This document shows positions 36,326 to 41,292 of a DNA stretch of 64,000 nucleotides, piece after piece. Positions within the stretch are counted from its first letter, which is position 1; each line of letters begins with the position of its first letter. Below the pieces are notes generated by a model, which worked only from the letters and a program-made list of their open reading frames with translations, was not told where the DNA came from and did not search any database. Where the stretch lies: assembly GCF_029227855.1 (NCBI RefSeq), contig NZ_CP074356.1. One strand, 5' to 3'. The stretch comes from Escherichia coli (GTDB lineage Bacteria > Pseudomonadota > Gammaproteobacteria > Enterobacterales > Enterobacteriaceae). The translations under genes and the position numbers were made by a program.

Positions 36326-36637
36326 ATGCACATCATTTCGAAAGCGCCATTTGAAGAGTGTGCGCGCAAATATCCTAACGACGCTCTGGCTCTACACTCA
36401 TTGTATCGGGTTATTAAGGAAACGGATTTTTCTACACCAGAAGAAATGCGAACGGCGTTTCCTAACCTCGACAATTTTAAATATCGCAACAAATGGTACG
36501 TTCTGGATGTCGGCGGGAACAATCTTAGGGTTATTGCCTACATAAACTTTGTTAATAAGCGGTTCTTTGTGAAGCACATAACGAATCACGCAGAGTATGA
36601 CAAACTGACACGTTACTACAGAGAGAACAAAGAATGA
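36326..36637 (+). CDS. Type II toxin, HigB-like (RelE/ParE superfamily mRNA interferase)
   Basis: Track ORF 103 aa; resembles E. coli HigB (MH.I.KA...YP, FP.LDNFKY, VGGN.LRV, TH.EYD); AAGGAAG Shine-Dalgarno; stop overlaps the next ATG (ATGA). Confidence 0.8.
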   Translation: MHIISKAPFEECARKYPNDALALHSLYRVIKETDFSTPEEMRTAFPNLDNFKYRNKWYVLDVGGNNLRVIAYINFVNKRFFVKHITNHAEYDKLTRYYRENKE

Positions 36638-37053
36638 CTGCTAATGCTGCACGCGCTGTTAAAGCAACAAGAGAACTGGTCAATGCAGTCCCCTTTCTGG
36701 GAGGCAGTGACTCAGAAGATGATTATCGTGAAGCACTGGAACTGGTCGAATATTTGATTGAAGAAGATGACACCAATCCACTTATCGACTTTCTGGCGAG
36801 CCGCATTGCAGAATATGAAAACAACAACGAAAAGTTTGCAGAGTTCGACAAAGCCGTTGCAGCAATGCCGGTTGGCGTGGCGTTACTTCGTACGCTGATT
36901 GATCAACATAATTTGACCTATGCGGATTTGAAGAACGAAATCGGCTCTAAATCTCTGGTCAGTCAGATTTTGTCTGGGCAACGATCCCTGACGATATCCC
37001 ATATTAAGGCACTTTCAGCCCGATTTGGCGTTAAGCCGGAATGGTTTCTTTGA
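36634..37053 (+). CDS. Type II antitoxin, HigA-like (XRE-type HTH)
   Basis: Track ORF 139 aa; C-terminal HTH (SKSLVSQILSGQRSLTISHIKALSARFGV); same architecture as HigA; translationally coupled to the upstream toxin. Confidence 0.8.
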   Translation: MTANAARAVKATRELVNAVPFLGGSDSEDDYREALELVEYLIEEDDTNPLIDFLASRIAEYENNNEKFAEFDKAVAAMPVGVALLRTLIDQHNLTYADLKNEIGSKSLVSQILSGQRSLTISHIKALSARFGVKPEWFL

Positions 37054-37131: not shown

Positions 37132-40022
<2,891 letters not shown>

Positions 40023-40107
40023 CGGATTTTATCCTGTTATCAGTAGGGTAGATGTAGTTGTTATCAGTCGACGTGACGGAAAAATGCCGATGCTGAAACG
40101 GAATTAG

Positions 40108-40194
40108 GAAACCGGTTTCACAAAATCATGAATAGTTGTCACTAAATAAGCAAGAGAGTTAATTGTTCATTTTTTATATTTGTGAAACCGGTCA
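40108..40194. promoter_or_regulatory. Two candidate AscG (LacI-family) operators in the ascF/ascG divergent region
   Basis: Perfect 12-bp palindrome GAAACCGGTTTC (40108..40119) and related TGAAACCGGTCA (40183..40194). Confidence 0.5.
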
Positions 40195-40278
40195 CCTGAA
40201 TATTTTTCCCGCCGATTGCGCAAGGACAATCGGCAAACGGTGCAGTACACTGCGTTGATTGCGTGTAAAGGGATGAAA

Positions 40279-41292
40279 ATGATGACGACGATGCTGGAAG
40301 TGGCGAAGCGCGCCGGGGTTTCAAAAGCGACCGTTTCCCGCGTGCTTTCAGGTAATGGCTACGTCAGCCAGGAGACTAAAGATCGCGTGTTTCAGGCGGT
40401 AGAAGAGAGCGGTTACCGTCCAAACTTGCTGGCGCGCAATCTGTCGGCGAAGAGTACTCAGACGCTGGGGCTGGTCGTGACCAACACGCTTTACCACGGC
40501 ATTTATTTTAGTGAATTACTGTTTCATGCCGCGCGAATGGCGGAAGAGAAAGGGCGACAGTTGCTATTGGCAGATGGTAAACATAGCGCCGAAGAAGAGC
40601 GCCAGGCGATTCAGTATCTGCTGGATTTGCGCTGCGACGCCATTATGATTTACCCGCGTTTTTTAAGTGTGGATGAGATCGATGACATCATTGACGCGCA
40701 CAGTCAGCCGATAATGGTGCTTAATCGCCGCCTGCGCAAAAATAGCAGCCATAGCGTCTGGTGCGATCATAAACAGACCAGCTTTAACGCCGTGGCAGAG
40801 TTGATAAACGCCGGGCATCAGGAGATTGCTTTCCTTACCGGCTCGATGGATTCCCCCACCAGCGTTGAACGTCTTGCCGGGTATAAAGACGCGCTGGCGC
40901 AGCATGGTATTGCGCTCAATGAAAAACTTATCGCTAACGGTAAATGGACGCCTGCCAGCGGGGCCGAAGGGGTAGAAATGTTGCTCGAACGTGGGGCTAA
41001 ATTTAGCGCGTTAGTTGCCAGTAACGACGATATGGCGATAGGTGCGATGAAAGCGTTGCACGAGCGCGGCGTAGCGGTGCCAGAGCAGGTGTCAGTTATC
41101 GGATTCGATGATATCGCTATTGCCCCCTACACCGTTCCGGCGCTCTCCAGCGTAAAAATTCCGGTAACTGAGATGATTCAGGAAATTATTGGACGGCTGA
41201 TTTTTATGCTCGATGGTGGGGATTTCTCACCGCCGAAAACCTTCAGCGGAAAACTGATCCGCCGCGGCTCCCTCATTGCTCTTTCGCAATAA
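40279..41292 (+). CDS. ascG: LacI-family repressor AscG
   Basis: Track ORF 40216..41292 (TTG-initiated extension); start set to the ATG at 40279 (MMTTMLEVAKRAGVSKATVSRVL), 6 nt after an AAGGG Shine-Dalgarno. Confidence 0.88.
   Translation: MMTTMLEVAKRAGVSKATVSRVLSGNGYVSQETKDRVFQAVEESGYRPNLLARNLSAKSTQTLGLVVTNTLYHGIYFSELLFHAARMAEEKGRQLLLADGKHSAEEERQAIQYLLDLRCDAIMIYPRFLSVDEIDDIIDAHSQPIMVLNRRLRKNSSHSVWCDHKQTSFNAVAELINAGHQEIAFLTGSMDSPTSVERLAGYKDALAQHGIALNEKLIANGKWTPASGAEGVEMLLERGAKFSALVASNDDMAIGAMKALHERGVAVPEQVSVIGFDDIAIAPYTVPALSSVKIPVTEMIQEIIGRLIFMLDGGDFSPPKTFSGKLIRRGSLIALSQ

Follow-up and report, generated by a model that had tools for sequence, protein, structure and literature searches.

The closest described counterpart of the locus examined here is the ascFB promoter of Escherichia coli K-12, which is the same locus with the same control elements: 256 of the 259 bp between ascF and ascG are identical, the CRP box is unchanged, and position 40107 of our sequence, a G, is an A in K-12. 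The 2009 study of Ishida and colleagues reportedly characterized the ascFB sites, their repressor AscG and the overlapping CRP box in K-12, elements that are also in RegulonDB. It is said to give an AscG consensus made of the half-sites TGAAACC and GGTTTCA, to place two AscG sites at ascFB with a CRP box overlapping one of them, and to conclude that AscG represses by interfering both with cAMP-CRP binding and with RNA polymerase binding. Two AscG binding sites at ascFB are stated by Meinhardt et al. (2012; PMC3505978), citing Ishida et al. (2009), and the K-12 asc operon is expressed only after disruption of ascG, as by IS186, so that an intact ascG is the normal K-12 state (PMC3505978 Table 1).

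Other well-studied systems share parts of this arrangement. The lac (O1 and O3) and gal (OE and OI) operators resemble those of asc in that a primary operator lies at the transcription start and an auxiliary one lies upstream, next to or overlapping a CRP site. The O1–O3 spacing of lac is 92 bp, of similar order to the 76 bp at asc. The systems differ in that LacI forms tetramers and GalR loops only with HU, whereas AscG has no tetramerization helix, and in that the upstream box of asc is nested inside the CRP box itself. CytR, a LacI-family protein like AscG, counteracts CRP activation at a catabolic promoter; it takes up positions between CRP dimers or next to them and interacts cooperatively with CRP (the CytR–CRP interaction is described in PMC3505978). 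At asc, by contrast, one set of base pairs makes up both the AscG box and the CRP box, an overlap that implies competition rather than co-binding. Finally, the operator of the Pseudomonas LacI-family repressor PtxS, 5'-TGAAACCGGTTTCA-3', has the same 14-bp palindrome consensus, and PtxS operators lie at or just downstream of the transcription start or the -10 element (at +5, for example) and repress by occlusion, as the start-proximal site at asc probably does; PtxS differs from AscG in its effector (2-ketogluconate), its regulon and its lineage, and no CRP overlap is described for it there (PMC5902321).

The two sites described below are thus already-described control elements of ascFB and present nothing new in kind. 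Our analysis nevertheless corrects the picture of them, in that the second "operator" is mainly a CRP activator site, the spacing of the pair is that of class I CRP geometry, and looping is unsupported. It also makes one small evolutionary addition, namely that the second AscG box appears to be derived and nearly confined to Escherichia.

The divergent ascF–ascG control region

We analyzed a window of 64,000 nucleotides from one E. coli genome (RefSeq assembly GCF_029227855.1, contig NZ_CP074356.1), in which the asc genes, named after the RefSeq annotation of matching genomes, lie as follows:

37132–38556, minus strand: ascB, 6-phospho-beta-glucosidase, 474 aa, intact, downstream of ascF
38565–40022, minus strand: ascF, PTS cellobiose/arbutin/salicin IIBC transporter, 485 aa, intact
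40282–41292, plus strand: ascG, LacI/GalR-family repressor, 336 aa, intact

In the RefSeq annotation of matching genomes, ascG is followed on the plus strand by hydN and then hypF. Both proteins of the operon match their family models over the whole length and above cut-off (AscF: NCBIfam NF007311, 1028 bits; AscB: NCBIfam NF007356, 1088 bits). No NCBIfam model scored above cut-off for AscG, which is therefore identified by being 99% identical to AscG of K-12 and to the protein of PDB entry 3BRQ. It agrees with K-12 AscG at 332 of 336 residues, and residues 1–194, which include the DNA-binding domain, are all identical; the domains found are a LacI helix-turn-helix and Peripla_BP_3 (Pfam), and the sequences of 3BRQ and of a further PDB entry, 3DBI, are nearly identical to it. 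The first-pass annotation of this DNA, made from the sequence alone, had taken the ascG frame to be intact, and the full-length, 336-residue product bears this out.

ascF and ascG are divergent, and both sites of interest lie in their shared control region, next to the gene of their cognate regulator. This 259-bp spacer (40023–40281) was found in 4698 of 5426 complete E. coli genomes. The MG1655 spacer has 98.8% identity to it, the differences being three substitutions, at 40107, 40160 and 40219, of which the latter two fall outside the boxes. An Rfam scan of the spacer at E<=1 returned no RNA family.

A separate observation concerns the far side of the operon, where a higB/higA-like toxin–antitoxin pair lies at 36326–37053, between hycI and ascB. 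Its first open reading frame encodes 103 aa (Pfam HigB_toxin, 82 bits) and the overlapping second, of 139 aa, has an HTH_3 domain. The hycI–ascB interval of K-12 is free of genes, and that of strain ECCNB12-2 holds an unrelated hypothetical gene; the differing contents of K-12, ECCNB12-2 and the window point to a strain-variable insertion spot.

A start-site operator and a CRP activator box

The spacer contains the string GAAACCGGTTTC at 40108–40119 (site 1), a perfect 12-bp palindrome, and the related string TGAAACCGGTCA at 40183–40194 (site 2). Both had been picked out at these positions by the first-pass annotation, as a palindrome and a related site 75 bp apart. The sites stand and the distance does not: the second string carries an extra T, so that starts in different registers had been compared. 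In register, GAAACCGGT begins at 40108 and at 40184, the site centers are 40113.5 and 40189.5, and the spacing is 76 bp.

Perfect 12-bp palindromes are not rare in themselves (18 in the window against about 15.6 expected). The rarity of the pair emerges when it is compared with the AscG consensus, which we take to be TGAAACCGGTTTCA. Sites with at most one mismatch to this assumed consensus are expected 0.01 times per window and one was found, site 1, and shuffled versions of the spacer (n=20,000) contain at least two sites within three mismatches at a frequency of 1e-4. On a weight matrix built solely from operators of orthologous, non-Escherichia loci, the highest score among 63,985 window positions is that of site 1 (23.9 bits), followed by that of site 2 (15.2 bits). 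The site pair is far beyond chance. The symmetry of the pair is also longer than first noticed, ACCGGTTTCACAAA (40111–40124) and TTTGTGAAACCGGT (40179–40192) forming an exact 14-bp inverted repeat. The corresponding shuffle statistic, the longest exact inverted repeat, is uninformative, since a self-palindrome requires just half as many matches and thereby raises the null (at least 14 bp in 2.6% of shuffles); we used consensus matches and matrix ranks instead.

The elements of the ascF promoter, which runs leftward in the window, are the following:

40107–40120, no strand assigned: site 1, the promoter-proximal AscG operator GGAAACCGGTTTCA, matching 13 of 14 positions of the assumed consensus and holding the 12-bp palindrome at 40108–40119
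40117, minus strand: implied ascF transcription start, computed from the center of the CRP box and its published position of -71.5 (PMC3105977)
40125–40130, minus strand: putative -10 hexamer CATGAT, conserved as cATGAT directly upstream of the operator in all genera
40148–40153, minus strand: putative -35 hexamer TTGCTT, conserved as tcTTG, 17 bp upstream of the -10 hexamer
40181–40196, no strand assigned: CRP activator box TGTGAAACCGGTCACC of the ascF promoter, center 40188.5 (-71.5), containing site 2

With the start at 40117, CATGAT would occupy -13 to -8 and TTGCTT -36 to -31; we assign the two hexamers from their conservation together with the published -71.5 position. A generic sigma-70 promoter and terminator scan of 39950–40350 found nothing. 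We do not accept this as proof that ascF lacks a promoter, since transcription here depends on an activator and each hexamer agrees with the sigma-70 consensus at no more than three to four of six positions. The published CRP position, -71.5, is one of the centers (near -61.5, -71.5 or -82.5) typical of class I CRP sites at activator-dependent promoters. This promoter anatomy is usable for engineering asc-based cellobiose utilization.

Site 1 lies over the ascF transcription start, its 14-mer spanning about -3 to +11 with the center at +4.5. Guharajan et al. (2021) give TGAAACCGGTTTCT as the AscG binding sequence from PascF (PMC8667592 Table S3); it is consistent with the consensus used here and is the K-12 form of site 1 read on the ascF strand, differing from the site in the window at the outermost base only, so that the comparison with reported AscG sites identifies site 1 as a published one. 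Placed at +1 of a synthetic promoter, the K-12 14-mer confers strong AscG-dependent repression (PMC8667592). The outermost base, 40107, is the only common E. coli variation at site 1: exact 40-mers with G, as here, occur in 2149 E. coli genomes and with A, as in K-12, in 2248, and the 12-bp palindrome is intact in both alleles. Other genera most often carry G at this position, with T in Aeromonas.

The ascF 5' leader contains a third TGAAAC half-site, TGAAACGG, at 40094–40101 (about +17 to +24), 13 bp from the site 1 center; the spacer holds three TGAAAC/GTTTCA hexamers against 0.25 expected. GTTTCA is kept at this position in Escherichia, Citrobacter, Kluyvera, Aeromonas and Sodalis, and not in Enterobacter or Klebsiella. 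We reject it as a full third operator, its rank on the AscG matrix being only 1444th.

Site 2 is primarily a CRP activator box, which in Escherichia is AscG-like as well. TGTGAAACCGGTCACC departs from TGTGA-N6-TCACA at one position, and only three sites in the window match as well. The AscG-like 14-mer within it, TGAAACCGGTCACC at 40183–40196 (center about -72.5), agrees with the assumed AscG consensus at 11 of 14 positions; the right half, GGTCACC, is a poor match to the AscG half-site (three mismatches), and the Escherichia CRP-box spacer AACCGG matches the consensus at six of six positions. Given the coordinates of the CRP box, the AscG site that reportedly overlaps it in the account of Ishida and colleagues corresponds to site 2, and we infer from this overlap that the second published AscG site is 40183–40196. 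A RegulonDB-derived supplementary table lists ascFB as CRP-activated at -71.5 with the sequence GGTGACCGGTTTCACA, which is the reverse complement of 40181–40196, so that the CRP box here is identical to the annotated one, and ascF was among the known CRP targets recovered by genomic SELEX (Shimada et al. 2011; PMC3105977).

It could be supposed that site 2 is a CRP box and nothing else, that its likeness to an AscG box is accidental, that AscG is absent from it in vivo and that site 1 alone regulates the operon. A consensus CRP box supplies 5 of the 14 AscG positions free (consensus against consensus), the right half, with its three mismatches, matches AscG poorly, and most genera have site 1 alone. 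However, the six-of-six match of the spacer has a chance of about 1/4096 under uniform base use, and AACCGG replaces the T and A found at spacer positions 1 and 6 in most other genera; site 2 is second among 63,985 positions on a matrix that is independent of it, 4546 E. coli genomes carry an exact copy of its surrounding 40-mer, and two AscG sites have been counted at ascFB in the literature (PMC3505978). A purely accidental likeness is unlikely, and we consider the supposition as a whole quite improbable. The first-pass proposal of two operator candidates thus holds insofar as both boxes are AscG-like and two AscG sites are on record for ascFB (PMC3505978), but its treatment of them as equivalent operators does not, site 2 being the ascFB CRP activator box and, in other genera, a CRP box without an AscG-like spacer.

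Occlusion, competition with CRP and looping

To place the two sites in an evolutionary frame, we fetched 80 asc loci from other species and aligned the resulting 81 loci, read on the ascF sense strand; the sampled taxa include Escherichia spp., Citrobacter, Enterobacter, Klebsiella, Raoultella, Kluyvera, Leclercia, Phytobacter, Aeromonas and Sodalis, among others. ascF is divergent to ascG in 79 of the 80, with spacers of 192–459 bp. Four blocks are conserved on the ascF strand, namely a CRP-like GTGAtC....TCAC, then tcTTG, then cATGAT and, abutting the last, TGTGgAACCGGTTtCC. The core of site 1, AACCGGTT, is invariant in all 81 aligned loci, the 80 orthologous ones representing over 15 genera that range from Escherichia to Aeromonas, and always abuts the conserved -10 block; this invariance identifies site 1, positioned over the ascF transcription start, as the ancestral AscG operator.

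This conservation also bears on the suggestion that the boxes are common to the paralogues GalR and GalS, which would tie asc expression to the control of galactose genes or to a chromosome architecture shaped by GalR. Both K-12 asc sites were flagged when GalR operators were sought with an information-theory scan, one at 2839356 between ascG and ascF and the other, AAGAAACCGGTTTCAC, at 2839425–2839440 (PMC5110547). This is an in silico prediction, however, and asc is missing from the 15 GalR-bound regions found by ChIP-chip (PMC5110547), and the cognate repressor gene, which is adjacent, accompanies site 1 in all genera examined. We reject GalR cross-binding as the main explanation and regard any such tie as extremely improbable.

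The history of the upstream box is different. Its CRP arms, GTGA-N6-TCAC/TCGC, lie 74–75 bp from the operator center in nearly all genera, and the 6-bp spacer between them varies freely (TGATGA, CTTAGA, TTACGA and others), most other genera having T and A at spacer positions 1 and 6 (GTGAT....ATCAC). The spacer AACCGG occurs only in Escherichia, with AACCGA or AATCGA in Kluyvera and one related MAG, and among the 80 loci the distal AscG-like box is absent from Citrobacter, Enterobacter, Klebsiella, Raoultella, Aeromonas and others, in which the spacing is kept. As an AscG operator, then, site 1 is conserved at the orthologous position and site 2 is not. The distal AscG box would accordingly be a derived feature that is almost limited to Escherichia and apparently arose within the spacer of a CRP box that predates it. 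The distance between the CRP-like box and the operator center is 65 bp, not 74–75 bp, in four loci (Escherichia sp. ESNIH1, Pseudescherichia vulneris, one Enterobacteriaceae MAG and Enterobacter sp. ENT03); this deletion of 10 bp, one helical turn, would shift CRP from -71.5 to -61.5 and leave it on the same face of the helix.

One MAG in the sample deserves separate mention. The 'Citrobacter sp.' MAG HRGM_Genome_0066 carries, on a 6.8-kb contig (DXKH01000019.1), an AscG that is 99.7–100% identical to that of the window and, on a second contig (DXKH01000052.1), a Citrobacter-type asc locus with 83% identity. The short contig DXKH01000019.1 is probably a mis-binned E. coli fragment.

The first-pass annotation had read the two boxes as consistent with two-site binding and looping by a LacI-family repressor. 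In its full form this reading holds that AscG dimers at both sites associate and loop out 76 bp that include the ascF core promoter, much as at LacI O1/O3 or in the GalR repressosome, and that the loop is the main source of tight repression. Several features are compatible with it: the AscG-like boxes are 76 bp apart center to center, or about 6.9 turns at 11 bp per turn, a distance between the two, 75.5 and 77.5 bp, at which LacI loops are stable in vivo (PMC3505978); the boxes form the 14-bp exact inverted repeat around the promoter; the DNA between them, at 24% GC, should bend easily; and some LacI/GalR paralogues loop without a tetramerization helix (PMC3505978).

The evidence on the other side concerns both the protein and the spacing. 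AscG aligns to residues 5–327 of the 360 residues of LacI and ends 7 residues later, and therefore lacks the C-terminal tetramerization helix. The chimera LLhA/Q55A, which joins the LacI DNA-binding domain to the AscG core, varied less than 2-fold across four diagnostic spacings in vivo, a weak spacing dependence that its authors contrast with the two natural sites at ascFB (PMC3505978); neither the C terminus of AscG nor the chimera points to the bridging on which a LacI-type loop depends. AscG alone at -61 has almost no regulatory effect (PMC8667592). At 10.5 bp per turn, 76 bp amounts to 7.24 turns and is out of phase. Moreover, the auxiliary box is not conserved together with the primary one, and yet the 74–75 bp spacing is kept in genera without the distal AscG-like spacer. 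An operator at +4.5 combined with class I CRP binding at -71.5 would give just this spacing, and its retention without a distal AscG box indicates that class I CRP geometry, not looping, explains it. With no tetramerization helix, no spacing dependence of the chimera and a spacing that CRP geometry explains, the looping proposal is unsupported, and we consider it unlikely.

We favor instead a model in which AscG occludes the promoter at +4.5 and, in Escherichia, also competes with CRP at -72.5, and we regard this combination as highly probable. The 259-bp spacer would carry a weak, CRP-dependent sigma-70 promoter for ascFB composed of the -35 hexamer TTGCTT, the -10 hexamer CATGAT, a start near 40117 and the class I CRP box at -71.5. 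Dimeric AscG on site 1 (-3 to +11) would block RNA polymerase or promoter escape. In Escherichia, the AACCGG spacer would embed a further AscG box, weaker than site 1, in the CRP site, and AscG bound there, at -72.5, would compete with cAMP-CRP and take away activation too. The two boxes would then act as two separate locks, one of occlusion and one of anti-activation, and not as loop anchors; with an intact ascG and no known inducer, the operon would be silent ("cryptic"), as in K-12. Competition with CRP is the likely mechanism at site 2, in keeping with the interference with cAMP-CRP binding that is reportedly described in the abstract of Ishida and colleagues.

Since the second AscG box is absent outside the Escherichia/Kluyvera lineage, the double lock would be limited to that lineage. 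More speculatively, the distal box may be a lineage-specific innovation, present in Escherichia and in a near form in Kluyvera, that arose in a part of the CRP box unread by CRP and turned a single operator into a double lock. It could in that case partly explain why asc is cryptic in E. coli, and the operon may have stayed inducible in relatives whose sole operator is the one at +1; we offer this as a tentative and rather doubtful possibility.

The ascG side of the spacer

On the opposite side of the spacer, the most conserved block is GGTGCAGTACACTGCG at 40239–40254, 28–43 bp upstream of the ascG start codon, which occurs once in the window and is almost invariant from Escherichia to Aeromonas. 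Our preferred reading is that the region fits an ascG core promoter with a putative -35 element aGGACA at 40223–40228, a 17-bp spacer and a putative -10 element TACACT at 40246–40251; GACAAT occurs at 40225–40230, likewise upstream of the block. GGTGCAGTACACTGCG could also be a protein-binding site, a role suggested by its conservation beyond what a -10 element needs and by its inverted repeat, GCAGT-ac-ACTGC. A reading of the same block as an RNA hairpin was rejected because a C-to-A change in several genera is uncompensated.

Between the CRP box and the putative ascG promoter lies a perfect inverted repeat (40211–40234) whose 8-bp arms, GCCGATTG / CAATCGGC, are separated by a spacer of 8 nt; the repeat overlaps the putative ascG -35 element and is not conserved outside Escherichia. 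Position 40219, within the spacer of this repeat, is polymorphic, being C here and T in K-12.
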